From UHGV virus genome UHGV-0135379: 44,739 nt of DNA; one strand, given 5' to 3'. A program made the position numbers and the translations under genes. The notes under the pieces were generated by a model. It was not told the DNA's origin and did no database searches. It saw nothing but the letters and a program-made list of their open reading frames with translations. This document shows, one piece after another, positions 8,862-27,199 of the stretch (positions are counted from its first letter, which is position 1; each line of letters starts with the position of its first letter). Source of the stretch: a virus.

Positions 8862-9087
8862 ACGCTTTACCGCACTTAATGCATGTGGCGCGATGTAACC
8901 CACCAACCACATGTAGGTAGTAGTCATGCGCACAAGGCTTTTCACCCTCTTTCAACTTATCAAGTAATAACTTAAACGCCTCCAGTTGAAACTCACCGTT
9001 AATTGACAGTTGCCCGCCTAACGTCTGTTTCTCTGACTCAAGGACCAGAATACGACGCTCAAGTGACGCGATTGTGATTTTAGGCAT
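8848..9087 (-). CDS. Hypothetical Cys/His-containing protein (79 aa)
   Basis: ATG overlaps upstream stop (TAATG); C..H...C..C spacing suggests a small zinc-binding fold. Confidence 0.5.
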   Translation of the reverse strand: MPKITIASLERRILVLESEKQTLGGQLSINGEFQLEAFKLLLDKLKEGEKPCAHDYYLHVVGGLHRATCIKCGKAYGVA

Positions 9088-9311
9088 TATTCGGCTCCCT
9101 CATAAAAATCGCCATTTCGGTAATCCCCATCGAAATCGTCAGAAATAGCGCGCCCCTTGTTCAGGTTGAAGCGGTTAATCAGCTCACGGCGGCGTTCCAT
9201 AAGATTATCCACCTGCCGTAAGTGGTGTTCGATGTGGGCGTCAATCCACGCTATTTCAGATTCACCGGTCGCGGATTCGACGCATGCTTTTTCATATTCG
9301 TTATTAGTCAT
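9087..9311 (-). CDS. Hypothetical acidic protein (74 aa)
   Basis: ATG overlaps upstream stop (ATGA). Confidence 0.5.
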   Translation of the reverse strand: MTNNEYEKACVESATGESEIAWIDAHIEHHLRQVDNLMERRRELINRFNLNKGRAISDDFDGDYRNGDFYEGAE

Positions 9312-9466
9312 ACTTTACGCTCTCCCCACATGCGATTGAGATACTTGTTCTTGTCCGGCCCAGGGAAACTGTTACGTTTCATCAGTTCCTCGCGTGTCGG
9401 GAACGGGGTGTGGCTGACTTTACGGCCTACCCGTAGTGGTTGGCTTACTTGACCTTGTTCGCTCAT
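9308..9466 (-). CDS. Hypothetical protein (52 aa)
   Basis: ATG with GGGAG RBS; stop overlaps next start. Confidence 0.45.
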   Translation of the reverse strand: MSEQGQVSQPLRVGRKVSHTPFPTREELMKRNSFPGPDKNKYLNRMWGERKV

Positions 9467-9660
9467 TCTACAATCTCCCATTTAACGCCGTGGAAGCCAT
9501 CACCTTCATCGTTACCAAAGTCTATGAAAATACAGCAGTCGTCGTCGGAGTCTATATAACCGAAACCAGTAGCTGTCGGGTTGTACACATCGTACACTTT
9601 ACCCTCTGTCACATAGTCAAGGGCGGCTAACCAGAGAATTTTAGCGGCTTTAACTTTCAT
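9463..9660 (-). CDS. Hypothetical acidic protein (65 aa)
   Basis: ATG overlaps upstream stop (ATGA). Confidence 0.5.
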   Translation of the reverse strand: MKVKAAKILWLAALDYVTEGKVYDVYNPTATGFGYIDSDDDCCIFIDFGNDEGDGFHGVKWEIVE

Positions 9661-9806
9661 TTCTTCTCTCCTGCATAAGCTGCTTTAAGTGTCTGCAGCG
9701 CAGCGAACCAGAACGCGTCCGCTGGAATGCTGTTGCTCAGGTTACTAACTGCGATGCGCGCCATCAGTTGCGCGTCTTTGAATGCTTCGATATCTGTGAT
9801 TTTCAT
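9657..9806 (-). CDS. Hypothetical protein (49 aa)
   Basis: ATG overlaps stop of 9806-10006 (TAATG); stop overlaps next start. Confidence 0.4.
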   Translation of the reverse strand: MKITDIEAFKDAQLMARIAVSNLSNSIPADAFWFAALQTLKAAYAGEKK

Positions 9807-10040: not shown

Positions 10041-10069
10041 AATATAATAGGGTCGAGGATAATAGTCAA
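10041..10069 (-). promoter_or_regulatory. Promoter TTGACT-N17-TATATT on the minus strand, upstream of 9806-10006
   Basis: 5/6 and 5/6 matches to sigma70 hexamers, 17-bp spacer, right after the lysis-operon terminator; carries only a half-box (CCCTATTATATT). Confidence 0.55.
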
Positions 10070-10090
10070 CTAGTCATCACAGAAAATAGA

Positions 10091-12858: not shown

Positions 12859-12889
12859 CTTCTGTCTCTCCTCTTGTTTGTGTAAATGA

Positions 12890-12918
12890 ATAGTAGCCTA
12901 TTCTATCTTAGTGTGCAA
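12890..12918 (-). promoter_or_regulatory. Promoter TTGCAC-N17-TACTAT (minus strand) with AATAG-N4-CTATT box (12889-12902)
   Basis: Same architecture as the moron promoters; followed by strong RBS and ATG at 12858. Confidence 0.6.
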
Positions 12919-12998: not shown

Positions 12999-13032
12999 AT
13001 GAGAAAAATGATACGCTGCTGTGTAGCAGCGT
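12999..13032 (-). terminator. Rho-independent terminator after gene 13066-13251
   Basis: Perfect 8-bp stem ACGCTGCT/AGCAGCGT followed by a T-rich run on the minus strand. Confidence 0.6.
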
Positions 13033-13065
13033 AAGTCACTCAGTAAAATCCCAAACTATTGAACA

Positions 13066-14004: not shown

Positions 14005-14038
14005 AACCATCACTCCTCTGTCTCGTTCCGATAAGTGA

Positions 14039-14067
14039 ATAGTATCCTATTATGTTGGGGTGTGCAA
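14039..14067 (-). promoter_or_regulatory. Leftward early promoter TTGCAC-N17-TACTAT with AATAG-N4-CTATT box (14038-14051)
   Basis: Near-identical to the element at 2231-2262 in reverse orientation; upstream of gene 13819-14004. Confidence 0.6.
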
Positions 14068-14229: not shown

Positions 14230-14376
14230 TTTACAATAGATTATGGCCCTTCCGAATGCCGGCAGCGACACTACACTCAGTGCTGACGCACCGCTCCGTT
14301 TCCTGCCGCACCGCGGTCGCTTGTTCATACTTCACAAGCTCAGGTGGAGCTTAGCACATTTCTTAGTAAAAGTCAA
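14230..14376 (+). repeat. Copy B of the ~150-bp non-coding element (perfect 51-bp core at 14311-14361)
   Basis: Same orientation as copy A; lies in the 470-bp divergent early intergenic region. Confidence 0.8.
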
Positions 14377-14423
14377 TACCATTAGCATCTTTTGTATATT
14401 AGTAACTTTGTGTGGTGTTTTGG

Positions 14424-14483: not shown

Positions 14484-14666
14484 ATGCAGCATTACATGAC
14501 ACAGAATGAAGTGGCTGAACGTATCGGGGTGACACGTCAAACAATTAATAACTGGTTGCGCAGCGGTAAATTCCCTGATTGCTGTATTAAGGTTATGGGT
14601 CGCCGTTTACCAGGAACATTTGACCGTAATAAAGTTGAAGCATGGATTAAGGAGAACGTGAAATGA
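14484..14666 (+). CDS. Small HTH DNA-binding protein (AlpA/excisionase-like fold), 60 aa
   Basis: Motif RIGVTRQTINNW; ATG with AGGAGA RBS; first gene of the rightward replication block. Confidence 0.6.
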   Translation: MQHYMTQNEVAERIGVTRQTINNWLRSGKFPDCCIKVMGRRLPGTFDRNKVEAWIKENVK

Positions 14667-14875
14667 TTGGGCGTATGGGTTGTTACTTTGAAAACTGTAA
14701 AGTTAAATACCGGTTTAAGTTTGCGCCGGAAATTACTGACAGCGGATTCTATGCGGAAATATGTAAGCCTAATCATTTGTTGGAACCGACACGCATTATT
14801 AAGATGCCAATCGAGGCTTTAAGTAAGTGTCGTTTCTACGCTTCGGAGCGTGCGTGGATTGCGGGCGTTAAGTAA
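14663..14875 (+). CDS. Hypothetical protein (70 aa)
   Basis: ATG overlapping upstream stop (ATGA). Confidence 0.5.
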   Translation: MIGRMGCYFENCKVKYRFKFAPEITDSGFYAEICKPNHLLEPTRIIKMPIEALSKCRFYASERAWIAGVK

Positions 14876-14943
14876 AAGAAACCCCAACGCCAGAACGTCG
14901 GGGCTAAAGTACAAATCATCAAAGTAAGCATAAGGATTATACA

Positions 14944-15072
14944 ATGACAAAGTTAATAGTTCCACAGCTACGCCGCCAGAAACACGGCGCTGACTTCTTC
15001 GCACCGGTAAAGATGAACCGCGCAATGCGCCGTATGCAGGAAGCCTTAGAACGTGCGGAGAAAAAGAAATGA
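14944..15072 (+). CDS. Hypothetical basic protein (42 aa)
   Basis: ATG with AAGGA RBS; stop overlaps primase-helicase start (ATGA). Confidence 0.4.
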   Translation: MTKLIVPQLRRQKHGADFFAPVKMNRAMRRMQEALERAEKKK

Positions 15073-17321
15073 ATATTGTTTTTGCAACGCTGCGCAACAC
15101 ATTCGATAAAAACCCTGTAGCGCGTGAGATGCCGCTCGAGCAGTTTGTGGAGTATGTCTGCGATACATCGAAGCGTTTATCCGTGGATCCGTCGTGGTCT
15201 AAGGAAGAGTACGACGCTGCCAAGATTAAGCAGAAAGCTATTGCGCCTGTTGGGGGTCGCCGTAAAAACGCTATCCTGGAAGACAGTGTGGTTAAGTTCG
15301 ATTTTGACCATCTCAACCGTACTCAGTACCGCGACCTTACCCGCAAATTCAAGAACGCACCGTTCTTCAATATTCTGCATACAACGGCATCGCATCAGCA
15401 TGTGTGTAAAAACGGTGATTACGCCTTCCGCGTTCTGGTTCCGGCTCGCACGCCGTTTAACTCTAACGACGCGTGGATGGTCCAACGGGCTATTTGTGCA
15501 GAGTTAGAAATAGATGAAGCCTTGCGTGACCACTGCACGGAAGACGGCAACCGCCTTATCTATCTGCCACATAGAGAGTCAAAGATAACGGTTACAGAAG
15601 GGCGTGTTATCCGTGCCGAGCGGTACATCAAGAAAGCCGAAGAGATGGGGTTGAGTAAACGTGAAGTTAAGACACTTGCCGCCGATGAGTATGGGCTTAA
15701 CGCTGATATAGCGCATTTCTGCGAAGCCGAGCTTGGCCTTGACGCTTTATCTTCCGGGCGCGGGTACGAAGTCCCATGCCCTAACGAACATCTGCATACA
15801 GGCAAAGGCTCCACAAGCATCATGCTTGATGGTAAAGAAGTGCGCTTTGTGTGCCAGCATACAAACAACGGCGCTTGCACCGAGCTTAACCGCCGACAGC
15901 ATTTGGCCCTGCGTATGTGCGGCCTGCCAGACGAGCTTAACGTAGACAAGCAACCTATCAGTATTAACAGCATTCGTGCGGCTCTGCCTGATTTACCGGA
16001 TGAAGAGATTGAAGAACTGCACCGCACAGAGAACGAGGAGCCTGTAACTTGCACGCTGGAAGACCTTGAAGAAGAGGACGAGTTACCAGAACCGGTAAAG
16101 GCTGATTTCGTCGTTGAGGGGTACATGCCGTCGGATTGTATCTGGGATATTGTCGGGGAATCCGGCACGTACAAATCATTCTATACGCTGGGGATGATGT
16201 ACCTGAGCGCCGCCGGGTACCGGTTTGCGGGGGCTGACACCCAACGTTGCCACCATTTCTATATTGACGGCGAGGGTGGTGCAGCTACACGAACACGTAT
16301 TGATGCACTCGCGGCTAAATATGGCGAGGAAGGTAAAGATTATGTACATGTCATCGATATGGGCGAAATACTCGCTACGCATGGTGATAAAAAAATTCCA
16401 GCTCTAATCCGCAGGATGCGCGAAACCGCAGGGGATGAACCTATTGGCATGGTTGCCTTCGACACCCTTAACCAGACGCTGGCCCTGACGATTGATAAGT
16501 TCGACGAGAACAGTTCATCAACGGCAATCGGTATGGGTAAAGTTATCGCCATCCTGAAAGAAGTGCGCGATGCAACTAAAGCCGCTGTCGGTGTCGTTCA
16601 CCATACTCCGAAGGGCGGAAAGAAAGCCCGCGGCAGTGGAGCATTGTATGCGGGTGTCGACGTGGAACTGACAATCGAACGCGCTACCGACCGTCAGATA
16701 AACGTATACCACTCTAAATTTAAGCACGGTCCGCAACAGAAGACGGTTGGCATGGTACTGGAGTCTGTACAGTTCCGTGAAGCACCGCCGCCGAAAGAGT
16801 ACCGCGCGGTTGAGTTCCTCGGTAGCACAGAGGAATACGGCACAATAGTAAACCTCGACCTGCCTGAGCCGCACAAGGCGCTTGTATTGATGCCGTGGGG
16901 CTTCGAGCCATTCAAGACCGACGAGGAGAAAGAGAGGGAAGAAGGGTTAACTAACGAAGGTAAACAAAATGTACGTAAAACCATAGAGAACGCCGTCAAC
17001 AGTTCCGAGGCCACGATACTCGCGGCGTTTGAACTGGCGGAGGGGACCTACAACGGCAACGAGGGCATCACGGTATCCGCAGCGAATAAGCTCGCGCAGT
17101 CTGACCCCAACGCAAAGGCGTTTAACTCCAAAGAAGCCATAGAACGCGGGAAGATTAAGAAAATGGTTGAGGCTGGGTATCTTGTTCCGGGTACTGACGA
17201 AAACAATCAGATAATCCCAGGCCGTTACAGACTGAACACCATGATAACAGATAACAAGATTCCGAAGACAATATACGAGCCGAATGAAATGCTGACAGTG
17301 ACCGAGGAGGATTTGGAATGA
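15069..17321 (+). CDS. DNA primase-polymerase (AEP-type) fused to a RecA/DnaB-like replicative helicase
   Basis: N-terminal DxD and sxH motifs (FDFDHL, ILHTTASH) plus Cys/His zinc cluster; C-terminal Walker A (GESGTYKS) and Walker B (VAFDTL). Confidence 0.8.
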   Translation: MNIVFATLRNTFDKNPVAREMPLEQFVEYVCDTSKRLSVDPSWSKEEYDAAKIKQKAIAPVGGRRKNAILEDSVVKFDFDHLNRTQYRDLTRKFKNAPFFNILHTTASHQHVCKNGDYAFRVLVPARTPFNSNDAWMVQRAICAELEIDEALRDHCTEDGNRLIYLPHRESKITVTEGRVIRAERYIKKAEEMGLSKREVKTLAADEYGLNADIAHFCEAELGLDALSSGRGYEVPCPNEHLHTGKGSTSIMLDGKEVRFVCQHTNNGACTELNRRQHLALRMCGLPDELNVDKQPISINSIRAALPDLPDEEIEELHRTENEEPVTCTLEDLEEEDELPEPVKADFVVEGYMPSDCIWDIVGESGTYKSFYTLGMMYLSAAGYRFAGADTQRCHHFYIDGEGGAATRTRIDALAAKYGEEGKDYVHVIDMGEILATHGDKKIPALIRRMRETAGDEPIGMVAFDTLNQTLALTIDKFDENSSSTAIGMGKVIAILKEVRDATKAAVGVVHHTPKGGKKARGSGALYAGVDVELTIERATDRQINVYHSKFKHGPQQKTVGMVLESVQFREAPPPKEYRAVEFLGSTEEYGTIVNLDLPEPHKALVLMPWGFEPFKTDEEKEREEGLTNEGKQNVRKTIENAVNSSEATILAAFELAEGTYNGNEGITVSAANKLAQSDPNAKAFNSKEAIERGKIKKMVEAGYLVPGTDENNQIIPGRYRLNTMITDNKIPKTIYEPNEMLTVTEEDLE

Positions 17322-17632
17322 ATATTTACGATTTTATAGATAACCCGTTTAAAGCAGTGAAGGCAGGATACCGCCCGTCATACCTGACATGTGTTTCCGC
17401 TGTAAGCAACAACTGGTGGACTTTTTGTGTGTATGCAGCGGGGATTTTTGCGGAGTTTAAAGACATTTTAGACATGACGCTGGCAGAGATTATAAAGTGC
17501 CTTTTCAAATTAATTATATCGATAACTATTGTTATAAGTTTTCCTGTAAGTGCGTGGTTTCTCGCCTGGATTCAGTACCTGAACGTGCAACACACTATTA
17601 AGAATTTGGAAGAACTCGATAAGTTGCTATAA
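17318..17632 (+). CDS. AT-rich membrane protein of unknown function (104 aa)
   Basis: ATG overlapping upstream stop; hydrophobic helices; markedly lower GC than flanks. Confidence 0.55.
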   Translation: MNIYDFIDNPFKAVKAGYRPSYLTCVSAVSNNWWTFCVYAAGIFAEFKDILDMTLAEIIKCLFKLIISITIVISFPVSAWFLAWIQYLNVQHTIKNLEELDKLL

Positions 17633-17656
17633 AAAGAAAGGGGCTTTAAGCCCCTT
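17630..17656 (-). terminator. Terminator hairpin overlapping the end of the Cro-like regulator gene
   Basis: Stem AGGGGCTT/AAGCCCCT followed by TCTTTTT on the minus strand; no T-run on the plus strand. Confidence 0.5.
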
Positions 17657-17861
17657 CACCTAACGCCAGCCACTTGGCGTCTACTTCCAGAACTTCCGCC
17701 AGTTTGAACAGCGTTGCCGGGCGGACGTCCTGAGTTACTCCAAGTGCCAGTTGGTTAATCGCGCCCTGGGAAACGCCGGTCAGGGCCGCCAAACGGCGCT
17801 GGGAGATGCCGAGTTCTTTACGGCGTTGTTCTACACGGATACCTAGTTCAGATGGTTGCAT
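17646..17861 (-). CDS. XRE-family HTH regulator (Cro/CI-like, 71 aa)
   Basis: Motif QRRLAALTGVSQGAINQL; transcribed divergently from the rightward genes across an operator-bearing promoter region. Confidence 0.8.
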   Translation of the reverse strand: MQPSELGIRVEQRRKELGISQRRLAALTGVSQGAINQLALGVTQDVRPATLFKLAEVLEVDAKWLALGEGA

Positions 17862-17891
17862 GTCAATTACTCCTTAGTCAGTTGATATGTG

Positions 17892-17905
17892 AATAGTACC
17901 ATATT
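17892..17905. promoter_or_regulatory. Degenerate operator copy (AATAG-TACC-ATATT) next to the start of the Cro-like regulator gene
   Basis: One intact half-site; lies 30 nt from the regulator ATG at 17861 and 30 nt from the operator at 17936-17949. Confidence 0.4.
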
Positions 17906-17925
17906 AATTATTTTAGAAAAGCCCA

Positions 17926-17954
17926 TTGACATGTGAATAGTTCGCTATTATAGT
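17926..17954 (+). promoter_or_regulatory. Strong rightward promoter TTGACA-N17-TATAGT with AATAG-TTCG-CTATT operator in the spacer
   Basis: Consensus -35, 17-bp spacer, 5/6 -10; divergent to the regulator gene; RBS and ATG 17983 downstream. Confidence 0.7.
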
Positions 17955-17982
17955 TAGCCCATACCAAACGAGAGGGGCGGAT

Positions 17983-18210
17983 ATGAACACAATAACGGGA
18001 GCCATAGCTAAAGGTTTTCTAGCAATTTTCGGAGAATCGCAGGAAGTGTGCACAAAACATAAATTTGTACTTTCTTGCGTAGTCGGGGACGAGTTTGATG
18101 GGTTCGATAAACTTGTTGTCTGCGACCATTGCGGGCAAGAAGCTATACAACACTCAAACGGTAAATTTGAATTAATAGACGATAGCCTTACAGAAGGCGA
18201 CGGCGAGTAA
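17983..18210 (+). CDS. Cys-rich small protein (75 aa), first gene after the strong rightward promoter
   Basis: ATG with GAGAGGGG RBS; C..C...C..H..C spacing suggests a zinc-binding fold. Confidence 0.55.
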   Translation: MNTITGAIAKGFLAIFGESQEVCTKHKFVLSCVVGDEFDGFDKLVVCDHCGQEAIQHSNGKFELIDDSLTEGDGE

Positions 18211-18234
18211 CCCAAATAAACAGGAGAATAAATA

Positions 18235-18759
18235 ATGTTAGAGAAATTCTTAGTATTACTGGAACGTTTCGTAGTTGCGCACGAACTGATTGCCGCGAAC
18301 AGTGCACGCCGTACTGAACTGCCGAAGGCTATCACTGCGCAATATGGTAAAGACGTCGACAGTGGTGTTGCAGAAACTGCAACAATCACGCCTACTGTTG
18401 TAAAAGAAGAAACAAAAGAAATCCCGGTTGAAGGTGAAGACGTAGTTGACACCAAACCGGCAGAAGAAGAAGAAGAGAAGCCTAAACGCAAGCCGCGTAA
18501 AGCTAAAGTCGAGGAACCTACGCCAGAGCCGGAAGAAGAGAAAGAAGAAGTCGATTACAAGTCTCTGCGTGACCAGATTCAGGCCATCGACGATGCAATT
18601 AATGAAGGTCCTAGCGATGCCGCGTGCGATGATTCTGATGAACTGCTGGAAGAGTTCACAGGTAAGAAGATGAAGATTGCCGCGATTAAAGACGAAGACC
18701 TGGTTGAGTACCTGGAACGCCTGACAGCAATCAAGAACAAGTATTTCGAAGAAGAATAA
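18235..18759 (+). CDS. Highly acidic early protein (174 aa)
   Basis: ATG with AGGAGA RBS; long Glu/Asp-rich segments. Confidence 0.6.
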   Translation: MLEKFLVLLERFVVAHELIAANSARRTELPKAITAQYGKDVDSGVAETATITPTVVKEETKEIPVEGEDVVDTKPAEEEEEKPKRKPRKAKVEEPTPEPEEEKEEVDYKSLRDQIQAIDDAINEGPSDAACDDSDELLEEFTGKKMKIAAIKDEDLVEYLERLTAIKNKYFEEE

Positions 18760-18802
18760 CTATCTCGCGGCCTTCGGGCCGCTTTAACTGAGGGTCGGAA
18801 TT

Positions 18803-19075
18803 ATGATTTACCAACTCTACCGAGCCGTCGACAGGCGGGATAACACAGAGGCGCTATGGCTATTGCGTGCTCCGTCCGGTGCGCACCAGATGGAAGAGAT
18901 GGCGTACTTAGGAAAAGTACCACGGCCTAAAGATATAGGCCGTCACGTGTCACAGATTAAGCGCACAACTTTCGCCAAGCCTGACTTTTATGTCTTCGAG
19001 TCGATGTATGGGTGGGCTATGCACTGCGAACATAAGACCCGGCATTTAATTGACCAGTGGGAGGTAAGGGTATGA
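18803..19075 (+). CDS. Hypothetical protein (90 aa)
   Basis: ATG with GAGGG RBS. Confidence 0.5.
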   Translation: MIYQLYRAVDRRDNTEALWLLRAPSGAHQMEEMAYLGKVPRPKDIGRHVSQIKRTTFAKPDFYVFESMYGWAMHCEHKTRHLIDQWEVRV

Positions 19076-19230
19076 CGAACCGTAAAGCGCGACTTCTATT
19101 TGTTAGACGTCACCTGCCTTTTCGAGTGAGTAACTCAACTTGGCTGGTCATCTTCAACCGTAGTGGCGACACGTGCGCCTACAAACGAAAAACGCGTAAA
19201 GCTAAATGGGGCGGGAGTTTAAGAGCATGA
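19072..19230 (+). CDS. Hypothetical basic protein (52 aa)
   Basis: ATG with GGAGGT RBS; coupled at both ends by ATGA overlaps. Confidence 0.4.
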   Translation: MTNRKARLLFVRRHLPFRVSNSTWLVIFNRSGDTCAYKRKTRKAKWGGSLRA

Positions 19231-20492
19231 AACTAAAAGAACGCAGCGGCAACAACGACGTGCACGCCTTACTGTCGCCGTCAGGCGCTAAGAAATGGCT
19301 TAGTTGCGCGGCATCACTGGCCTGTGAGAAGGATATCCCTAACACGTCAGGAAAAGCCGCGGTATTAGGCACAGCAATGCACACCATCGCAGAGATGCAC
19401 CTCAACCAGTACATCAAAGGCACTGCGCTGCCGTTAGAACGTGAAGTCGGTGCTTATGTGCTGGATGAGGGCAAAGGCCAGATTAAGGCGCTAATCAGTC
19501 CGATGAAAGGCGCGGTGCTGATTACGGCTGACATGATTGAGCAAGTGCGCAAGTACACAGACTACTGCAAAGCGATTATAGACGTCGCGACTTACGCCAA
19601 GCTGGAAATGCGCGTCAACCTTACTGAGGTATTGCATCCTGGCTACATTCATAGCCCTAACGGACGGCAAGAAGAAATACAAACCTTCGGAACCGCGGAC
19701 CTTGTTGCCGTACAGGAACTGGCTAACACTGACGAGCACATGCTTATCATTGGCGACCTGAAAACCGGGCGGCATCGTGTCGAAGCGAAAGAAAACAAGC
19801 AGCTTATGCTTTACGCTCTCGGTGTTTATCGCCGGCTCAAGAGACGTTATAACATAACAACGGTTCGTCTGGTAATCTTCCAGCCGTATGCCGGAGGTGC
19901 GTCGGAGTGGGATATCTCGGTTGAAGGTATGGAACTGTTCGCTAAGTTCGCACAGAAACGCGCGCTGTTAGCCCTTGATGCTTATTCCCGTGGCAAGAAG
20001 AACCTTAAAGCGTCGGACTTCAAGCCGTCGGTAGATGGTTGTCAGTGGTGTCGTTTCTCGGAACAGTGCGCAGCTCGTACAAAAACCGTTAACGCGGTAC
20101 TGGCGGAAGAACTTGAGGACGACTGTGCGCTGGAACTTACGCCAGAGCAACTCGTCGCTGAGTATGAGAAGCTGCCGTTGTTGCGCCAGCACATCGACAA
20201 GGTTGAGAAAGCGATGGCTGCTGCTTTGCATTCAGGTAAGAAAGTGCCAGGATACAAACTGGTTGAAGGTCGCCCCGGTAATCGTGCGTGGAAAGATACC
20301 GACGCAGTATTCGAGAAGTACGGTACTATGCTGCAAAAGGTAGTTCTTATGACACCGACCGAAGCGGTTAAAATTGTACCGGAAGAAGAACTGAAAGACT
20401 TCATTACCCGTAAGCCCGGTGCGCCATGCGTCGCAACGGCGGATGACAAACGTCCTGAGTGGAATCAAGTTACAGAGGAGGATTTAGAATGA
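19227..20492 (+). CDS. PD-(D/E)XK family exonuclease with C-terminal Cys cluster (RecB/Cas4-like)
   Basis: Motifs IGDLKTG and QLMLYA, Cys cluster CQWCRFSEQC; ATG at 19227 with GGGAG RBS (track ORF starts at 19206). Confidence 0.7.
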   Translation: MKLKERSGNNDVHALLSPSGAKKWLSCAASLACEKDIPNTSGKAAVLGTAMHTIAEMHLNQYIKGTALPLEREVGAYVLDEGKGQIKALISPMKGAVLITADMIEQVRKYTDYCKAIIDVATYAKLEMRVNLTEVLHPGYIHSPNGRQEEIQTFGTADLVAVQELANTDEHMLIIGDLKTGRHRVEAKENKQLMLYALGVYRRLKRRYNITTVRLVIFQPYAGGASEWDISVEGMELFAKFAQKRALLALDAYSRGKKNLKASDFKPSVDGCQWCRFSEQCAARTKTVNAVLAEELEDDCALELTPEQLVAEYEKLPLLRQHIDKVEKAMAAALHSGKKVPGYKLVEGRPGNRAWKDTDAVFEKYGTMLQKVVLMTPTEAVKIVPEEELKDFITRKPGAPCVATADDKRPEWNQVTEEDLE

Positions 20493-20692
20493 TTCAAGTA
20501 AATGAAATGCCGACTGATAAAGATTTTTTGATGGTATGGCGCTGGGATGGGTATCTACACTCGGAATCGTTCACGTTCTTGAACGGTACCATGATGCGAT
20601 ACGACCCTGTAGAGGATGAGTTCGAACCGGCCAATATGCTTAATTTCGAGAACATAATCCCTATTGCAAAATTTTATTTGACACATGAATAG
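20489..20692 (+). CDS. Hypothetical protein (67 aa)
   Basis: ATG overlapping exonuclease stop, GAGGAGGA RBS embedded in the exonuclease C-terminal codons. Confidence 0.5.
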   Translation: MIQVNEMPTDKDFLMVWRWDGYLHSESFTFLNGTMMRYDPVEDEFEPANMLNFENIIPIAKFYLTHE

Positions 20693-20706
20693 TTAGCTAT
20701 TATAGT
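20678..20706 (+). promoter_or_regulatory. Promoter TTGACA-N17-TATAGT with AATAG-TTAG-CTATT operator; upstream of SSB-like and DNA polymerase genes
   Basis: Near-identical architecture to 17926-17954; overlaps the stop of gene 20489-20692. Confidence 0.65.
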
Positions 20707-20764
20707 TCTAATCACTGGCCGGGCAGATCCCGGAGTAAACTGAAACTGAAAAGCGAGAAATCAA

Positions 20765-21394
20765 ATGGGACTGAAATTAAATCTGCGTAAAGTAAACACT
20801 GCCTGGGTTAACGTATTCGAACGCGAAAAAGACCGTGAAAACGACGATGGCTCAATCACTAAAGGTCAGTACAGCGCTACTATTATCCTGCCGTCCGACC
20901 ACGCGCAAATCGACGCGCTCTACGACACCGTTTACGCGGTAGTCGAAGAAGCGTTAGGCGCCGCCGCTGCCGAGAAATGGATGAAGTCCAACTACGGCGA
21001 AGGTAAGCACATGGATAAATGTGCGATTAAAGACATTGCCGAGCGCGACAATCCGTTCGAAGACTTCCCGGAAGGCTTCTACTTCAAAGCGAAGGCACAG
21101 AAACAGCCACTGATTGTAACCTCTAAAAAAGGTGAGACTCAGGTAGAGCAGGACTTCAATGTAGACGGCGAACAGATTGAAGGTGAACAGGTTTACAGTG
21201 GCTGCGTTGCTAACGTAAGCGTAGAAATCTGGTTCAGTCAGAAATACAAAGTTCTCGGTGTTAACCTGTTGGCAATTAAGTACGTTGGAGAAGGTAAAGC
21301 GTTCGGCGGTTCTAAAGTCGCCGCGAGCGTCAATGACCTGGAAGACGACGAAGAGGATGAAGCACCACGCCGCGAACGTCGTCGCCGTGGTTAA
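20765..21394 (+). CDS. Putative ssDNA-binding protein (T7 gp2.5-like)
   Basis: Similar size and acidic C-terminal region (DLEDDEEDEA); sits just upstream of DNA polymerase; terminator follows. Confidence 0.5.
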   Translation: MGLKLNLRKVNTAWVNVFEREKDRENDDGSITKGQYSATIILPSDHAQIDALYDTVYAVVEEALGAAAAEKWMKSNYGEGKHMDKCAIKDIAERDNPFEDFPEGFYFKAKAQKQPLIVTSKKGETQVEQDFNVDGEQIEGEQVYSGCVANVSVEIWFSQKYKVLGVNLLAIKYVGEGKAFGGSKVAASVNDLEDDEEDEAPRRERRRRG

Positions 21395-21413
21395 TATCTG
21401 AATCTGTTTAACT

Positions 21414-21437
21414 AAGGCCCTTCATTGGGCCTTTTTA
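21414..21437 (+). terminator. Rho-independent terminator after the SSB-like gene
   Basis: Hairpin AAGGCCC-TTCATT-GGGCCTT followed by TTTTT. Confidence 0.6.
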
Positions 21438-21453
21438 CTAAGGGTCGAAAATA

Positions 21454-23625
21454 ATGAGTTACCTGTTCTTAGACTTTGAAACATTCTCCGAAGCCGATTT
21501 AAAGAAAGTCGGCTCCTACGCTTACGCCGAACACCCGTCAACCGAAGTGCTAATCTGCACATATGCCTTTGATGACGAGCCTGTACAGGTATGGGATTGC
21601 ACCGACGGCAGCGACATGCCGGGAGATTTGCACCGCGCCTTGCGCCGCCTGGTTAAGCCAAACAGCCGCACCAAGATGGTGTGGCACAACGGCTCAATGT
21701 TCGATAGGCTCATCATGAAGCACTGCTGGGGTTTTGATATTCCCGTAAGCAACACCATTGATACGATGATTTGGGCGTTTCGTCACGCGCTGCCAGGTTC
21801 ACTGGATGCCTTGTGCGAAGTGTTGGGCGTATCCGCCGACAACGCGAAAGATAAACGCGGCAAGGCGCTGATTCAGCGTTTCTCTAAACCGACACCGAAG
21901 AACTACAAAATCAGACGCTATACCGCAGAAACACACCCGGACGAGTGGGCGCTGTTCATCAAGTACGCCGTGAGCGACATCACCGCGATGCGTGAAGTCT
22001 TCCATAAGCTGCCACGTTGGGGTAACTCCGAGTTCGAAGACCGTGTACTGGAACTTGACCAGTTAATAAATGACCGCGGGTTTAAGGTTGACGTTGCACT
22101 GGCAGAAGCCGCGATTGAAGCCGTGGAGAAGCACAAGGCGCAGTTACAGGAAGAAGCCCAACGAAAATACGGTGGCTCTCTTACTGGTAAGGACTTCCTG
22201 CCGATTCTGCGTGAACTTGCGCCAGCGCACCGTATCCACAACGCGCAGAAGTCAACGCTTAACGACCTGCTGGCGGATGAGGATTTACCCGACGACGCCC
22301 GCACAATTATAGAAATGCGCCTCGGGGCCGCGTCCACTGCGTCAACGAAATATAACCCGCTGCTGTTGGGTCGCTCGTCGGACGACCGCCGCCGTGGTTG
22401 CATCCAGTACGGTGGGGCCAAGCGTACGTTACGGTTCGCAGGTAAAGGCTTCCAACCACAGAACCTGGCGCGCGGGTACTATCACGATGATGAACTGGAT
22501 AAGGGCATTTCAGCGCTACTTAAGGGTCGTGCGCATCGCCGTTTCGACGTAGCCAAGCTAACGGCGTCGACGGTTCGTAGCTGTATTATCCCGGAAGCAG
22601 GGCATAAGTTTGTCGTAGCCGATTACTCTAACGTTGAAGGCCGTGGTTTGGCGTGGCTGGCTGGCGAAGACGATTTAATAGAAGTATTTGTAAACGGGGT
22701 TGATGTGTATAAGAAACTCGCATCAACCGTGTTCAACGTTAGTTATGACGACGTAACAAAGGACCAAAGACAAATAGCCAAAGCAATGGTTCTCGGACTG
22801 GGTTACGCGGGGGGTGTAGGGGCTTTCGTCACGTTTGCTAAAAACTTAGGGCTTGATTTGAACGATATGGCCCGTACTTTAGACGGGACTTTCCCTGACC
22901 ATATCTGGGCCGCTACCGCACGAGGATATGAATGGGCGCGTATTCAGGAAGCCAAGCGACCGCCACGTCCTGGTGAAAAAGATGACCGACCATCATATAT
23001 TCTTGATAAGAAAGTTTGGCGCACCTGTGACGCTTTAAAGCGCATGTACCGGGAAGCTAACCCAGCAATAGTCCAATTCTGGCGCGATATTGAAGATGCA
23101 GCTATGGCGGCTATCCGCAATCCGGGTAAAGAGTTCACCGCAGGGCCGCGCGGGGTTAAGTTTTCGCGTAACGTAGAGACAGATAACAACGGCAACAAAG
23201 TCGCTGGTTGGTGGTTGCGTATGACGCTGCCGTCGGGTCGTGTTATGTCTTATCCAGGCGTCGGGTTAAGCGTATCAAAAGAGACAGACGAAGACGGGAA
23301 GGTGTCTACTAACGTGCGCATCAAGTACCAGGGCGAAAATCAGCTAACCCGACAGTGGGGGTTCCAGTACACATATTCCGGTAAACTCGTGGAAAACTGT
23401 ACGCAGGCGCTGTGCCGTGATTTGCTGGCTAATGCACTGCTGAACGTAGAAGCAAACGGCTACCCTATTGTACTTCATGTACACGATGAACTGGTATGTG
23501 AAACTCCAGATACGCCGGAATACAACGTAGCTGAACTGGAGAAATTAATGTGTGCGTTGCCAGAGTGGGCAGAGGGCTTCCCTCTTGTAGCAGAAGGTAG
23601 CGAAATGTACAGATACGCCAAGTAG
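21454..23625 (+). CDS. Family A DNA polymerase with 3'-5' exonuclease domain
   Basis: Exo I motif FLDFETFS; polymerase motif B (K...YG) and motif C (VHDE). Confidence 0.9.
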   Translation: MSYLFLDFETFSEADLKKVGSYAYAEHPSTEVLICTYAFDDEPVQVWDCTDGSDMPGDLHRALRRLVKPNSRTKMVWHNGSMFDRLIMKHCWGFDIPVSNTIDTMIWAFRHALPGSLDALCEVLGVSADNAKDKRGKALIQRFSKPTPKNYKIRRYTAETHPDEWALFIKYAVSDITAMREVFHKLPRWGNSEFEDRVLELDQLINDRGFKVDVALAEAAIEAVEKHKAQLQEEAQRKYGGSLTGKDFLPILRELAPAHRIHNAQKSTLNDLLADEDLPDDARTIIEMRLGAASTASTKYNPLLLGRSSDDRRRGCIQYGGAKRTLRFAGKGFQPQNLARGYYHDDELDKGISALLKGRAHRRFDVAKLTASTVRSCIIPEAGHKFVVADYSNVEGRGLAWLAGEDDLIEVFVNGVDVYKKLASTVFNVSYDDVTKDQRQIAKAMVLGLGYAGGVGAFVTFAKNLGLDLNDMARTLDGTFPDHIWAATARGYEWARIQEAKRPPRPGEKDDRPSYILDKKVWRTCDALKRMYREANPAIVQFWRDIEDAAMAAIRNPGKEFTAGPRGVKFSRNVETDNNGNKVAGWWLRMTLPSGRVMSYPGVGLSVSKETDEDGKVSTNVRIKYQGENQLTRQWGFQYTYSGKLVENCTQALCRDLLANALLNVEANGYPIVLHVHDELVCETPDTPEYNVAELEKLMCALPEWAEGFPLVAEGSEMYRYAK

Positions 23626-23659
23626 TAGATTTAGGAAATACGTTGTAGAAAATGTAAAT

Positions 23660-23692
23660 ACCGATATAGTGGCTATGTCGGTATTTTTTTTT
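23660..23692 (+). terminator. Rho-independent terminator after the DNA polymerase gene
   Basis: About 10-bp stem followed by a T9 run. Confidence 0.65.
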
Positions 23693-23702
23693 GGAGTTAT
23701 TA

Positions 23703-24398
23703 ATGAAAAAGTGTTCAAGATGCGGCGAAGATAAACCGGCGACTACAGAGTATTTTTCAAAGTCAACGCGCCTCGGGCTGCAACGCTGGTGTAAAGAGTG
23801 TGTAAATGCTAACAGGAAGGAAAAGTATGACGAAAAACTTAAATTACAAGGTAAATCCAGACGAGAAAGCCCTTGGTATGTTTTCACTGGGAAGCCTGTT
23901 AAATGCAGAAAGTGTGGGGAGGTAAAACCTTTAACAGAGGAAAACTTCAGGAAAGGAAATAAAAGTAATGGCTCTCATATCAGGAAAGATTGCCGGGAGT
24001 GTCTCAACAAGCAACGCAGGGAACTGGTGAATAAGGACCAAAGGACGCGGGCGTACGCGCTTTTGTTAGGATACAAAAGAGCAGATTCAGGAAAAGGGCT
24101 TATCTGCGATTTAACACTGGAAAGCGTTATTAAACTAATATCACAGCCATGCCATTATTGCGGAAGCACTACAAAAGTCGGGGTAGACCGCATAGATAAT
24201 ACAAGCGGGCACATAGTATCTAACTGCGTTTCTTGTTGTCAGACATGTAATCTTACCAGAGGACACCGGTTTACATTCATTGAAATGGTTACGGAGATAG
24301 GTCCCGCCATTAAAAGAATAAAAGCGGCGAGAGAAGTTTCACATATACCGTCTTTTCCTAATAGGTGGCCTGAAGGAGAATGTAGAGATGCCAAGTAA
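23703..24398 (+). CDS. HNH endonuclease with N-terminal zinc-ribbon repeats
   Basis: Repeated C..C pairs and HNH-like core VDRIDNTSGH...NCVSCCQTCN; AT-rich; ATG with GGAG RBS (track ORF starts at a TTG at 23691). Confidence 0.7.
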   Translation: MKKCSRCGEDKPATTEYFSKSTRLGLQRWCKECVNANRKEKYDEKLKLQGKSRRESPWYVFTGKPVKCRKCGEVKPLTEENFRKGNKSNGSHIRKDCRECLNKQRRELVNKDQRTRAYALLLGYKRADSGKGLICDLTLESVIKLISQPCHYCGSTTKVGVDRIDNTSGHIVSNCVSCCQTCNLTRGHRFTFIEMVTEIGPAIKRIKAAREVSHIPSFPNRWPEGECRDAK

Positions 24399-24519
24399 AC
24401 TAAGTATCGCGGTGCTGGCGGGATTCGCCGCTGGTGTCTACTGTCACGAGGGTCAATACGGCATGATGGTCGCCGTATTGGGTATGCTAGTAGCAATTTA
24501 TTTGTGGGTGCTGGAATGA
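24388..24519 (+). CDS. Small hydrophobic peptide (43 aa)
   Basis: ATG with GAAGGAGAA RBS; coupled to the next ORF. Confidence 0.35.
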   Translation: MPSKLSIAVLAGFAAGVYCHEGQYGMMVAVLGMLVAIYLWVLE

Positions 24520-24605
24520 AAATTTACTGGTTATACGAAGAAGACTGCCGAATCTGTCCGCGCTGCGGGATTGAGCATACGAAACGTGAGGGGTGCGTAT
24601 TATGA
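24516..24605 (+). CDS. Tiny Cys-rich peptide (29 aa)
   Basis: ATGA coupling at both ends; C..C....C..C spacing. Confidence 0.25.
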   Translation: MKIYWLYEEDCRICPRCGIEHTKREGCVL

Positions 24606-24754
24606 CAATGTTAGTATTCTGGACCATAGTAACCATGCTCGCACTGTTACTCGGCGCGGGAATAGCTGCGATGTTCTGTTACGGCCTGTTCTTTAAGTTT
24701 GTTGGCGTTGCCGTTCTCGGAGGAGCGTTTATAACCTGGGTTCTGCGCTCATGA
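24602..24754 (+). CDS. Small membrane peptide (50 aa)
   Basis: Two hydrophobic helices; coupled to the VRR-NUC start. Confidence 0.35.
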   Translation: MTMLVFWTIVTMLALLLGAGIAAMFCYGLFFKFVGVAVLGGAFITWVLRS

Positions 24755-25035
24755 CCCCGGAAGGCAAGATTCAGAAATACGCAAAAGAGCGATTCGAGGC
24801 CATTGGTGGCCTCGTTCGTAAACTTTCCTACGAGGGGCGCTCCGGTGCTCCTGACCTGCTGGTAATTCTCCCCGGCGGCATCGTCTGGTTCGTCGAGGTT
24901 AAGAAAGACGAAAATACGAAGCCAGACCCACACCAGTTACGTGAGCATGAGCGGATGCGTAAACGCGGTGCAAATGTTTTTGTCGTCGGTTCGTTTAAAC
25001 AGGTTGACGACCTAATAGCGAACTATTATAGTTAG
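24751..25035 (+). CDS. VRR-NUC domain nuclease
   Basis: PD-(D/E)XK-type core GAPDLLVIL...FVEVK; 94 aa. Confidence 0.75.
   Translation: MTPEGKIQKYAKERFEAIGGLVRKLSYEGRSGAPDLLVILPGGIVWFVEVKKDENTKPDPHQLREHERMRKRGANVFVVGSFKQVDDLIANYYS
25004..25032 (+). promoter_or_regulatory. Promoter TTGACG-N17-TATAGT with AATAG-CGAA-CTATT operator; upstream of 25066 and the SNF2 helicase
   Basis: Same architecture as 17926 and 20678; overlaps the last codons of the VRR-NUC gene. Confidence 0.6.
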
Positions 25036-25065
25036 CCTTACACCAACAATATAAGGAATTGAGAA

Positions 25066-25260
25066 ATGAAACACGAATATGACCGCAAACCAGCACGTGA
25101 CATCGTACCGGGTGACATGATTTTCAGCGTTAAGACCCGTCGGCCTGTTGCCGTTGATACTGTGTTTGTAGAGTCGAACGGTAAACTGGTTATCGAGGAC
25201 GTAACAGGTAACGTTACGGCGTTCGGGCGCAAAGAGCTGGTGCTCTACGTTAAGGGTTGA
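25066..25260 (+). CDS. Hypothetical protein (64 aa)
   Basis: ATG with AAGGA RBS after promoter 25004-25032. Confidence 0.5.
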   Translation: MKHEYDRKPARDIVPGDMIFSVKTRRPVAVDTVFVESNGKLVIEDVTGNVTAFGRKELVLYVKG

Positions 25261-25262
25261 GT

Positions 25263-26687
25263 ATGTCTAAATTTATCCGTCGAGAGTACCAGAAGCTCAT
25301 GACCTCGTTCATGCTGCAACACCCGCGCTGTAATATCTGGTGCGGAATGGGGGGAGGTAAAACCTCCTCCACTATGTGGGTGCTCAACCGCCTGTTCCGC
25401 AACGGGCAGCTTACAGAAGAGGACCGCGTGTTAATCCTCGCCCCGTTGCGCGTTGCGTCCGGTACATGGCCTGCAGAACAAGAGAAATGGAAATTCCCTT
25501 GTCTGCGCGTCGTAGATGCAACCGGTTCAGAAAAGCGCCGCATCGCAGCGCTGGAGTCTGATGCTAACGTGGTGTGCACTAACTACGAAGTTATCGAGTG
25601 GCTGATTGACTACTACGGCAAAGACGACTGGCCTTTTACCGTTATCGTTGCCGATGAAAGCACGAAGCTTAAATCGTTCCGCAGCCGTTCAGGTGGTAGC
25701 AAGAGGGCGAAGGCGCTTAGCAAGGTTGCGTTCGGCAAGGTTAAGCGTTTCATCAACCTTACGGGTACACCATCACCAAACGGCCTCAAAGACCTGTGGG
25801 GGCAGAACTGGTTTATCGACGCTGGCGAGCGCCTCGGTTCTTCGTACACAGCGTTCACTGACCGCTGGTTTAACTCGGTACAGAAAGGCAAATCGGCTAT
25901 GGCACGTGAATATCACGCACGCCCGGGTGCAGATAATGAGATTCATCAGAAGATGAAAGACATCAGCCTGACCATAGACCCCGCCGAATGGTTCGGTTGT
26001 GAAGCGCCGATTATTGTACCGGTCGAAATCGACCTGCCGAAGAAAGCGCGTCAGGCGTACATTGATATGGAGGAGAAGTTATTTGCGGAACTGGAGAGCG
26101 GGGAAGTTGAAGCGGCTAACGCCGCGGCGAAGACGTCGAAGTGCTTGCAAATTGCATCCGGTGCTGTGTATGTGTCAGGACCAGACGGCGAAGCGACCAA
26201 AGACTGGGAGAAAGTGCACGACACGAAACTGGATGCGCTTGAGTCAATTGTCGAGGAGTTACAGGGCGCGCCGCTGCTTGTAGCCTATCAGTTTAAGCAC
26301 GAACTGGAGCGCATCCTTAAGCGATTCCCGCAGGCGCAGGCATTTGCTAAAGGCGCTAAAGGTAATAAGCAGATGGAAGCGTGGAACCGCGGGGAAATCG
26401 AAATCTTATGCGTGCATCCAGCGTCAGCCGGTCATGGTTTGAATTTACAGGACGGCGGGCATCATCTGGCATTCATCTCGCAAGGCTGGAACCTTGAGCA
26501 CTATTTGCAGGTTGTTGAGCGCATAGGCCCAGTCCGCCAGAAACAGGCGGGTCACGAGCGCCCGGTGTTCCTTTATCACATCGTTGCTAAAGACACTCTG
26601 GACGAGGTTGTCGCCGCGCGTACCGACGAGAAGAAATCGGTACAGGAAGAGTTGCTTAATTACATGAAGAGACGAGGTAAGAAATGA
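25263..26687 (+). CDS. SNF2-family (DEAD/DEAH-like) helicase
   Basis: Motifs MGGGKT, ADESTKLK, NLTGTP; ATG at 25263 (track ORF starts at a TTG at 25257). Confidence 0.85.
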   Translation: MSKFIRREYQKLMTSFMLQHPRCNIWCGMGGGKTSSTMWVLNRLFRNGQLTEEDRVLILAPLRVASGTWPAEQEKWKFPCLRVVDATGSEKRRIAALESDANVVCTNYEVIEWLIDYYGKDDWPFTVIVADESTKLKSFRSRSGGSKRAKALSKVAFGKVKRFINLTGTPSPNGLKDLWGQNWFIDAGERLGSSYTAFTDRWFNSVQKGKSAMAREYHARPGADNEIHQKMKDISLTIDPAEWFGCEAPIIVPVEIDLPKKARQAYIDMEEKLFAELESGEVEAANAAAKTSKCLQIASGAVYVSGPDGEATKDWEKVHDTKLDALESIVEELQGAPLLVAYQFKHELERILKRFPQAQAFAKGAKGNKQMEAWNRGEIEILCVHPASAGHGLNLQDGGHHLAFISQGWNLEHYLQVVERIGPVRQKQAGHERPVFLYHIVAKDTLDEVVAARTDEKKSVQEELLNYMKRRGKK

Positions 26688-27199
26688 TGGATTTCGAAGA
26701 GTTTCTACTTAAAGCTCATCTGCTGGCGCGTGGGTTTGACGCTGACCGTCTCCAGGTAGTCTTAGCCCCTGGAGTAGCTACGTTTTACCTGTGGGGGTTT
26801 GACGGTAGGCTTCGCGGATACCAGCATTACAAACCACATGCCGAAAAGAACTGTAAAAACCCTAAAGACGCGCGGTACTTTACCAGAACAACAAGGCCGT
26901 GTTTATGGGGGCTTGAGTATTTGCCGGAAAGCGGGGTGGTATTTGTTACCGAAAGCATATTCAAAGCCGTAGCCTTGATGAATTGCGGGTTCAATGCTGT
27001 AAGCGCACTGGGGTCAAATATATCAACAGACCTACGGCAGCAAATGTCACTTTTGCCGTATGACTGGGTGTGCGCTGGCGACAATGATAAAGCTGGATTA
27101 AAGTTCAGCAAAACATTCACCAGAGGATTTGTATCTAACGACCTTGATGAACTTTGTGAAGAAGAAATAACGTATCTTGCGAGGAAATTTACCAGATGA
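26684..27199 (+). CDS. TOPRIM-domain protein (primase-like)
   Basis: Conserved Glu (VFVTES) and DxD (AGDND) typical of TOPRIM. Confidence 0.5.
   Translation: MMDFEEFLLKAHLLARGFDADRLQVVLAPGVATFYLWGFDGRLRGYQHYKPHAEKNCKNPKDARYFTRTTRPCLWGLEYLPESGVVFVTESIFKAVALMNCGFNAVSALGSNISTDLRQQMSLLPYDWVCAGDNDKAGLKFSKTFTRGFVSNDLDELCEEEITYLARKFTR

Follow-up and report, generated by a model that had tools for sequence, protein, structure and literature searches.

What reads the palindrome AATAG-N4-CTATT, and to what effect, is the question raised by the divergent control region at 17862-17982 of the virus genome UHGV-0135379, where this ‘box’ lies once in perfect and once in imperfect form beside the gene for a small Cro-like protein. 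The 44,739 nucleotides (nt) of that sequence, referred to here as the window, form a complete 44.7-kb Kagunavirus genome (Guernseyvirinae), that of a K1G/Jersey-like virulent siphovirus, a lytic coliphage. A first-pass annotation, made from the letters of the window, had placed the box in promoters throughout the genome and had proposed that a single DNA-binding factor acts through it to co-regulate early, replication and accessory genes. The evidence set out below makes it likely that some phage-encoded repressor binds the box, and suggests that the box is probably an operator for the Cro-like protein in particular.

The box and its promoters

Exact copies of AATAG-N4-CTATT start at 2247, 4390, 12889, 14038, 17936, 20688, 25014 and 37433, as had been listed, against an expectation of 0.04 from dinucleotide shuffles of the window, none of which reached eight. 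Among every palindrome composed of a 5-mer, a gap of 0-8 nt and the inverted 5-mer, it ranks first with its eight copies, and the next in rank are GC-rich terminator stems with three; it is the window’s only over-represented palindrome. Allowing one mismatch gives 11 sites against 1.1 expected, the additions being those at 17892, 10061 and 2156. The degenerate copy at 17892, also noted earlier, is real (AATAGTACCATATT, one mismatch). Boxes occur in both orientations relative to transcription. Rfam and tRNA scans, made in case the box was part of an RNA element, found nothing at the boxes, and a likeness of TGAATA to the ARG box of ArgR was rejected as a half-match only.

All eight exact boxes lie inside sigma70-type promoters, which here, as throughout, are predictions by consensus match to the -35 and -10 hexamers. 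The two architectures described for them were confirmed with exact hexamers. In class A, TTGC(A/G)(C/G)-N17-TACTAT, the box occupies positions -19 to -6 and thus covers the -10; in class B, TTGAC(A/G)-N17-TATAGT, it occupies -25 to -12 and 10-11 of the 12 consensus positions are matched. Both lead into a ribosome-binding site and a start codon. A division into two classes is too narrow, however, because the one-mismatch box at 10061-10074 (minus strand; leftward ACTAGTTGACTATT) contains the -35 of TTGACT(10069-64)-N17-TATATT(10046-41), and a fourth geometry, in which the box begins 7 nt past the -35, is found in relatives (Jersey, Cornellvirus). Measured at its centre, the box stands at about -12.5, -18.5 and -33.5 in the window and at about -15.5 in Jersey.

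The three class B promoters face rightward. At 17936-17949 the perfect box AATAGTTCGCTATT sits in the spacer of TTGACA(17926-31)-N17-TATAGT(17949-54), which would drive the rightward operon running from 17983 to the exonuclease gene. The box at 20688-20701 lies likewise within TTGACA(20678-83)-N17-TATAGT(20701-06), with the SSB and DNA polymerase genes downstream, and that at 25014-25027 within TTGACG(25004-09)-N17-TATAGT(25027-32), ahead of a gene for a 64-amino-acid protein, the helicase and the primase. Two of the class A promoters face leftward, the box covering the -10 in each: TTGCAC(14067-62)-N17-TACTAT(14044-39), with the box at 14038-14051, for early small genes, and TTGCAC(12918-13)-N17-TACTAT(12895-90), with the box at 12889-12902, for leftward early genes. 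The other three stand on the plus strand, again with the box over the -10. The promoter TTGCGC(2231-36)-N17-TACTAT(2254-59), with its box at 2247-2260, drives a plus-strand accessory island within the minus-strand structural region; TTGCAG(4374-79)-N17-TACTAT(4397-4402), with its box at 4390-4403, drives a gene for a 63-amino-acid accessory protein at 4431-4622; and TTGCAC(37417-22)-N17-TACTAT(37440-45), with its box at 37433-37446, heads an island that encodes a superinfection-immunity-like protein, a repair exonuclease, PNK and a dNMP kinase. The 10061 box lies just past a terminator, upstream of small genes, NinH and terminase, and counts more weakly than the 14038 and 12889 boxes among those of the leftward early genes.

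The class A promoters are alike over about 46 nt, from the -35 into the 5' leader. A common TTGCAC had been given for the leftward early promoters and the inserts; this holds at 12889, 14038 and 37433, but the hexamers at 2231 and 4374 differ from it, and the identical run shared by these two promoters, put at 21 nt, is 23 nt long (2240-2262 = 4383-4405). The possibility that class A promoters are bidirectional, since in reverse they resemble class B, was rejected for a poor match at the -35 positions. Among the hits of a promoter scan with no more than two mismatches to the 12 consensus positions, those between genes are all three class B promoters, the 10061 promoter and a leftward site, TTCACA-N16-TAAAAT, overlapping the 17936 box; the remaining hits at this level fall within open reading frames (ORFs), and the five class A promoters score under the scanner’s threshold.

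Selection on the half-sites

Orthologous promoters were gathered from 39 IMG/VR loci and from GenBank relatives by flank similarity, without use of the box, giving 20-26 distinct orthologous sequences for each of seven promoters. The alignment cells that differ from the majority base number 10/1360 (0.7%) in the half-sites, 57/544 (10.5%) in the central N4 and 455/3808 (11.9%) in the flanks. The contrast is about 15-fold, and the corresponding Fisher p values (1e-22 and 2e-49) are overstated, since the cells are phylogenetically dependent. The centre itself is free to the extent that 29 different N4 sequences are seen.

The pattern is repeated promoter by promoter. Both half-sites of the 17936 box are invariant in 26 distinct orthologues, with centres TTCG, TTCA, TTAG, CTCG, TTTG and CTAG, and substitutions and 1-nt indels have accumulated between its -35 and the box, the indels leaving the box fixed relative to the -10. 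The 25014 box has nine different centres and half-site changes in only three of 25 sequences; the half-sites at 14038 are invariant in 25 distinct orthologues, and the 10061 box is kept in 26. Even the imperfect half AATAT of the 17892 box is itself invariant (21 distinct orthologues).

The class B half-sites lie in the promoter spacer, whose bases are not specifically contacted by sigma70, so that their constraint must come from something else. On these alignments, then, there is selection on the half-sites beyond the needs of sigma70, and the dyad symmetry of the constraint points to a dimeric DNA-binding protein.

The box family across genera

The genera compared were Kagunavirus, Jerseyvirus, Cornellvirus (SE1, GRNsp27 and VSiA) and Dhillonvirus (Over9000). 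A motif scan over the genome and its relatives, which had been suggested as a check, bore out the family in Kagunavirus and Jerseyvirus, with a variant in Cornellvirus. Jersey has four exact and three near boxes in promoter positions; of the annotated promoters in its GenBank record, four overlap a box, which is exact in three cases and has one mismatch in the other, and the Jersey orthologue of the 10061 box also lies in an annotated promoter. The Cornellvirus orthologues of the 10061 box read AATAGTTGCATAAT.

None of the three Cornellviruses has an exact box, and a search of Cornellvirus for another exact palindrome or repeated word found none. In the orthologous promoters of Cornellvirus the -35, the -10 and the flanks are the same, and at the position of the box they have ATTAG-TTTA-GTATT, ATTAGTGTCGTAAT and similar sequences. 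The relaxed pattern AWTAN-N4-NTAWT that covers these is in excess in SE1 (10 observed, 1.9 expected), VSiA (9 and 2.1) and GRNsp27 (8 and 2.0). As controls in Cornellvirus, a strict AATA or a relaxation of other half-site positions (WATA, AAWA, AATW) gave background counts. The intergenic DNA of SE1, 3.9 kb in all, contains eight complete relaxed sites, where a model trained on that DNA predicts 0.56, and 0 of 300 simulations reached eight. Over9000, which shares the replication module, has 0 relaxed sites against 1.8 expected, and the sites are not in excess in unrelated contigs.

The half-sites differ by genus. They are G/T-AATAG in Kagunavirus, T-AATAG in Jerseyvirus and T-A[T/A]TA[G/C] in Cornellvirus, where TATTAG, TAATAC and TAATAG dominate. 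In Jerseyvirus all 30 of 30 distinct contexts are T-flanked on both sides, making a perfect 16-mer TAATAG-N4-CTATTA, and most Kagunavirus boxes have G at one outer side and T at the other.

The Cro-like gene is present in Kagunavirus, Jerseyvirus and Cornellvirus and absent from Over9000, and it is the only recognisable sequence-specific regulator among the non-structural genes to have that distribution. Across the three genera its product is only 41-49% identical, and its recognition helix reads VSQGAINQLA in Kagunavirus (33 loci, invariant), VSQSLITHLA in Jersey and VTQSAISHLC in Cornellvirus. Sequence comparison over four lineages thus supports the view that the operator family follows the distribution and the divergence of the Cro-like gene.

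The Cro-like protein and its control region

The Cro-like gene (17646-17861, minus strand) encodes a 71-amino-acid protein with a Pfam HTH_3 domain over residues 11-65 (49.7 bits against a cut-off of 23, E 3.9e-13). A phmmer search of the PDB gives as the nearest solved structures 434 Cro (E 8.5e-6), which also has 71 amino acids, and the N-terminal domain of the 434 repressor (E 1.1e-5), followed by P22 C2 (E 5e-3). The 434 proteins are dimers on 14-bp operators (ACAA-N6-TTGT) in which the outer bases are conserved and the centre is sequence-free, and their Gln28 and Gln33 read A1 and the A4-T pair of the operator. In the alignment the Cro-like protein keeps Gln at the equivalent positions; the first and fourth bases of the box are both A, and A1 is constant throughout the three genera.

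The divergent control region at 17862-17982 places a perfect box on the rightward promoter and an imperfect one, at 17892-17905 (minus strand; AATATGGTACTATT in the direction of the gene), on the promoter of the Cro-like gene itself; the Jersey equivalent of the latter reads ATTACTGTACTATT. The left edge of the 17936 box also overlaps a possible leftward -35 for the Cro-like gene (TTCACA, 17937-32). Each of the three genera has a good box in the divergent promoter region next to the gene, and Kagunavirus and Jerseyvirus also have the imperfect box on the gene’s own promoter. The 17892 box is likely to be a weak autoregulatory operator, and a layout of one perfect and one imperfect box is the usual signature of delayed self-repression.

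A probable repressor operator and its proposed mode of action

The anatomy of the promoters fits a repressor operator. The position of the box varies yet always overlaps the polymerase footprint, and is therefore read here as the site of a steric repressor, whilst promoters so near to consensus should fire unaided. The probable sequence of events would begin with host sigma70 RNA polymerase firing the strong, near-consensus early and middle promoters. The Cro-like protein would be made from the divergent region at 17862-17982 and would then accumulate, and a dimer would occupy each 14-bp site (16 bp with the flanking base), one helix-turn-helix (HTH) motif reading each AATAG half-site. Polymerase would be kept out because the site covers the -10 in class A, the spacer as far as the edge of the -10 in class B and the -35 in the 10061 type, and this would turn down the leftward early genes together with most of the replication genes and the three accessory islands. 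The weaker, conserved site on the gene’s own promoter would allow a delayed self-limitation.

The proposal of a single factor co-regulating early, replication and accessory genes is thus supported by half-site selection, geometry and distribution over lineages, but it does not extend to the whole of the replication block: the helicase-primase operon has a conserved promoter, TTGCTT(14424-29)-N17-TATACT(14447-52), with no box. Of the two binders put forward, the 71-amino-acid Cro-like protein is favoured and the 60-amino-acid HTH protein encoded at 14484-14666 is disfavoured, since it is missing from Cornellviruses that keep the operator variant.

Several observations weigh against a Cro-like repressor acting at these sites. 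The promoters are themselves known as consensus predictions. The Cro-like proteins of Kagunavirus and Jersey have only six of 10 recognition-helix residues in common, yet the genera use the same AATAG core, and the G/T asymmetry of the Kagunavirus box is not obviously explained by a symmetric homodimer. The argument from lineages rests on four of them, which is very few independent events, and the relaxed Cornellvirus pattern was chosen after the relic sites had been viewed, a bias that the controls offset only partly. Small genes at 18235-18759, 9087-9311, 9308-9481 and 9657-9806, together with a NinH-like gene at 8188-8448, share the distribution of the Cro-like gene. Finally, RNA-seq of Kagunavirus K1B4, in coarse classes, puts HTH gene 008 among four early-peaking genes and gene 004 in the ‘middle’ class; by gene order, 008 is probably the 60-amino-acid HTH protein and 004 probably the Cro-like protein.

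A more far-reaching version is put forward only tentatively and is less likely to be right than wrong. It would make one Cro homologue of 71 amino acids the master timer for an entire subfamily of strictly virulent siphoviruses, shutting off early, replication and accessory promoters through about ten dispersed operators, with regulator and operator diversified into at least three co-evolved genus pairs that do not cross-react. On such a scheme the Kagunavirus G/T asymmetry would mean that one half-site is bound with a different affinity from the other, or that a second partner takes part, perhaps the 60-amino-acid HTH protein.

Alternative binders and alternative roles

A binder of another kind, either a phage protein not recognisable as a DNA-binding protein or a host factor common to Escherichia coli and Salmonella, is unlikely. 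Most early genes of the window are without annotation, and several small genes match the distribution of the box family. The NinH-like protein among them, however, is about 69% conserved in all three genera and does not track the operator variants, and a host factor would leave the half-site difference between Jerseyvirus and Cornellvirus unexplained, since both infect Salmonella. We know of no E. coli regulator with the box consensus, and the Cro-like protein already fits in type, geometry, position and variation.

That the box is a repressor operator but is bound by the 60-amino-acid protein is unlikely. The gene for this protein (14484-14666, plus strand), a minimal MerR/excisionase-type winged helix, is the first of the helicase-primase operon, so that the protein would come from a promoter escaping box control. 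It does carry a DNA-binding domain (Pfam HTH_17, hence HTH_17 protein here; PHROG ‘excisionase and transcriptional regulator’), its versions from Kagunavirus and Jerseyvirus, the genera with the same AATAG core, are 80% identical, and it is probably the early-peaking HTH gene of K1B4, if the inferred mapping holds. Its predicted model is closest to BldC, RacA, RdfS, Pukovnik Xis, lambda gpNu1 and P2 Cox (4lhf), and RacA binds a 14-bp inverted repeat; relatives of this fold bind both direct and inverted repeats, so that the fold is not decisive. The model has no dimerisation helix, and the protein has no significant sequence match to a solved structure. Although it shares fold class and PHROG label with P2 Cox and 186 Apl, the sites of these and other excisionase-type relatives are direct repeats one helical turn apart (PMC7498355), whereas the box is an inverted repeat in a phage with no integration module.

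Comparison between genomes goes further against it. The putative recognition helix of the HTH_17 protein varies within Kagunavirus (VTRQTINNW, VTRRTLNNW, VSTMTLNRW, VSPMTLNRW) with no accompanying change in the box, whose extended consensus is constant, and Kagunaviruses with a Jersey-like helix keep the Kagunavirus G/T flank. In a search for co-variation between this protein and the box, the 39 IMG/VR loci were all close Kagunaviruses with the same box, and a large protein search returned only relatives at 68-98% identity. No orthologue is present in Dhillonvirus, and none was found in the three Cornellvirus genomes (tblastn E>1), which keep variant operators in orthologous promoters. The HTH_17 protein had been entertained as the binder for being conserved in the box genera and missing from Cornellvirus, and was rejected once the Cornellvirus variant operators were found: Cornellvirus carries the operator variant without the HTH_17 gene, which is therefore not needed. 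In Cornellvirus the helicase-primase module is inverted relative to the other two genera (L003 4112-7002; L046 34354-37005), and its operon is headed by the Cro-like gene, in the place held elsewhere by the HTH_17 gene.

It is quite improbable that the box is the loading site of a positive factor, whether an activator or a processive antiterminator of the lambda Q or AlpA type that would allow read-through into late genes. There is some resemblance. In lambda Q, as in the Pseudomonas AlpA element, a factor site is embedded in a sigma70 promoter; the Q binding element lies between the -35 and the -10, like the class B box; and the HTH_17 protein is itself of AlpA/excisionase type. Intrinsic terminators split the gene blocks downstream of box promoters (for example at 21410-21436, and at 13012-13033 after the early leftward genes), and no obvious separate late promoters appear in the promoter scan. 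However, the Q and AlpA elements have one fixed geometry and a promoter-proximal pause, whereas the box stands at three to four distances from the promoter elements, varying by 6 to 21 bp, and a shift of 6 bp puts it on roughly the opposite face of the helix, which hardly suits a defined contact with polymerase. A class I/II activator, too, would be expected at one constant position. In class A it covers the -10 hexamer itself. An activator would be unneeded at promoters already near consensus, read-through would do harm at the accessory islands, which end at terminators that shield the opposing late genes, and the family persists in Cornellvirus, which lacks an AlpA-like protein.

Still more improbable is that there is no dedicated factor at all, the boxes being the product of duplicated promoter cassettes and of what sigma70 requires of a sequence. 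The similarity of the class A promoters over about 46 nt does suggest duplication, and the right half-site shares bases with the -10 in class A and reaches its edge in class B. Yet the left half-sites of both classes and most of the class B right half-site are outside sigma70 contacts and about 15-fold less variable than the neighbouring spacer. Nor does polymerase explain the dyad symmetry, the presence of one box in two unrelated promoter classes and in a third that overlaps the -35, or the change of an outer base in parallel at orthologous sites between genera.

The motif has been assigned to a phage-encoded RNA polymerase in fBC-Eco01 (Kagunavirus, 2023), on seven PHIRE hits with the consensus tgAATAGTa-ccTATTat-T (PMC9825357), which equals the extended box, and seven PHIRE ‘promoters’ are also listed for Golestan (PMC7203180), but this can be set aside with near certainty: no RNA polymerase gene is found among the window ORFs, the large ones all being accounted for by replication and structural genes, or among the annotations of the relatives inspected, and the motif is palindromic, is flanked by canonical sigma70 -35 and -10 hexamers at 17-bp spacing, and faces either way relative to transcription.

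Comparison with known phage repressors

With these alternatives weighed, a Cro-like repressor may be compared with the systems that it most resembles. The likeness to 434 Cro and cI is close: a single-domain 71-amino-acid HTH_3 protein with detectable sequence similarity; a dyad-symmetric site of 14 bp, conserved in its outer bases and free in the middle; boxes lying exactly over the consensus hexamers of the predicted promoters that they would control; and graded sites in a divergent control region beside the regulator’s own gene. It differs in its half-site, AATAG, with five bases and a flanking base conserved, and in a two-residue insertion after the recognition helix. The operators here lie over at least 9-11 promoters throughout the genome, compared with two operator clusters in 434 (OR1-3 and OL1-3), and the phage is strictly lytic, with no partner CI, integrase or lysogeny module. 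Neither integrase nor CI is annotated in the closest relatives, Jersey, SE1 or VSiA, and no lysogeny genes were reported for Golestan (PMC7203180). With no CI and no integrase this is not a lambdoid immunity switch; the system would work like a Cro that is not part of one.

In lambda and P22, Cro is a small repressor made early in lytic growth; it sits on operators within the host-type early promoters PL and PR, lowers their output and acts more weakly on its own expression. The fold of lambda Cro differs from the 434 Cro type seen here, and the regulon here includes replication promoters and the accessory (‘moron’) islands. The PHIRE studies and the Jersey record describe the same element, treated as a promoter consensus. 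No paper was found on its dyad symmetry, an operator role, a regulator or the variants between genera, subscription journals being outside the coverage of the search.

Genome context and other repeated sequences

The closest relative of the window is Escherichia phage SHAK7858, with 95.6% identity over an 8-kb stretch; for Golestan, the BASEL phages Bas70-76 and others the figure is about 90%. The GenBank record of SHAK7858 (OR594183.1) is filed as Autographiviridae; Kayfunavirus, and the phage is named ‘vB_EcoM’, despite this identity to a Kagunavirus siphovirus genome; its annotation omits the Cro-like gene and calls a short ORF on the opposite strand instead.

In the window a leftward block from 14013 comprises small early genes, lysis, terminase and head, a rightward replication block occupies 14484-27333, and the tail genes are leftward; three short plus-strand islands lie within the structural regions. 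The structural genes have no boxed promoter ahead of them. Between the SSB and DNA polymerase genes, at 21410-21436, stands a hairpin with a T-run (GGCCCTTCATTGGGCCTTTTT) that resembles a terminator, so that expression of the polymerase from the 20688 promoter would need read-through. An Rfam match to the int-alpA RNA (RF02996) at 37334-37398 on the minus strand (36.6 bits against a gathering threshold of 35.8, E 4.7e-4) falls within the leftward tail operon’s leader, directly next to the 37433 box. No match at the gathering level is present in Jersey, SE1 or VSiA, and that in the window may be due to chance.

In many Kagunaviruses (for example L008, L019 and L034) the end of a gene is separated from a terminator hairpin by an additional perfect box, AATAGTAACCTATT, which lacks a -35. 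The hairpin corresponds to 13012-13033 in the window, where the equivalent of the box is degenerate (AATCCCAAACTATT, 13046-13060). This promoter-less box may act as a roadblock or be a site in decay.

A segment of about 150 bp occurs twice on the minus strand of the window, at 2022-2169 and 14234-14380, with 81-92% identity. Each copy follows a promoter-like TTGACT-N17-TAAGCT, and the two fold at -44 and -40 kcal/mol. They differ by compensatory changes in one hairpin (GGGAC...GUCCU against GGUGC...GCACU), which suggests a small structured RNA gene in two copies. Rfam and tRNA scans place the segment in no Rfam family and show that it is not a tRNA; one copy is present in 18 related loci. The one-mismatch box at 2156-2169 (minus strand; leftward AATAGTTGACTTTT) lies over the -35 of this TTGACT-N17-TAAGCT, at the end of the duplicated segment, and the second copy (at about 14368) has no box-like left half. 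The membership of 2156-2169 in the regulon is doubtful.

The 9-mer AACGGCAAC/GTTGCCGTT is found 13 times in the window against about 0.3 expected (for example at 652, 2492, 13606, 14080, 17052, 23188, 42098 and 42968); it favours neither strand and is not tied to the coding strand. In Jersey, Cornellvirus and Dhillonvirus, too, words akin to it (ACGGCAGC and similar) rank highest among the 9-mers. Over9000 (L047) has a repeated word of its own, ATTGGTTGC(A), present about 13 times and concentrated in the early region around a helicase-primase operon that is headed by a different HTH protein, gp50 (for example at 36739 and 39556-40047). This word may be a lineage-specific counterpart of the box.

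Implications for the Guernseyvirinae

Kagunaviruses and Jerseyviruses rank with the phages put forward most often for therapy and for the biocontrol of food. The literature would need correcting in that the element is not a promoter for a phage polymerase. Boxed promoters may also be of use in engineering as compact, strong and repressible promoters, possibly with three natural repressor/operator variants.

Kagunaviruses and Jerseyviruses encode no phage RNA polymerase or sigma factor. If the reading of the box as an operator for the Cro-like protein is true, one small repressor and some ten operators control most early and middle transcription in these phages, and the inserted accessory genes appear to have been wired into the same circuit.

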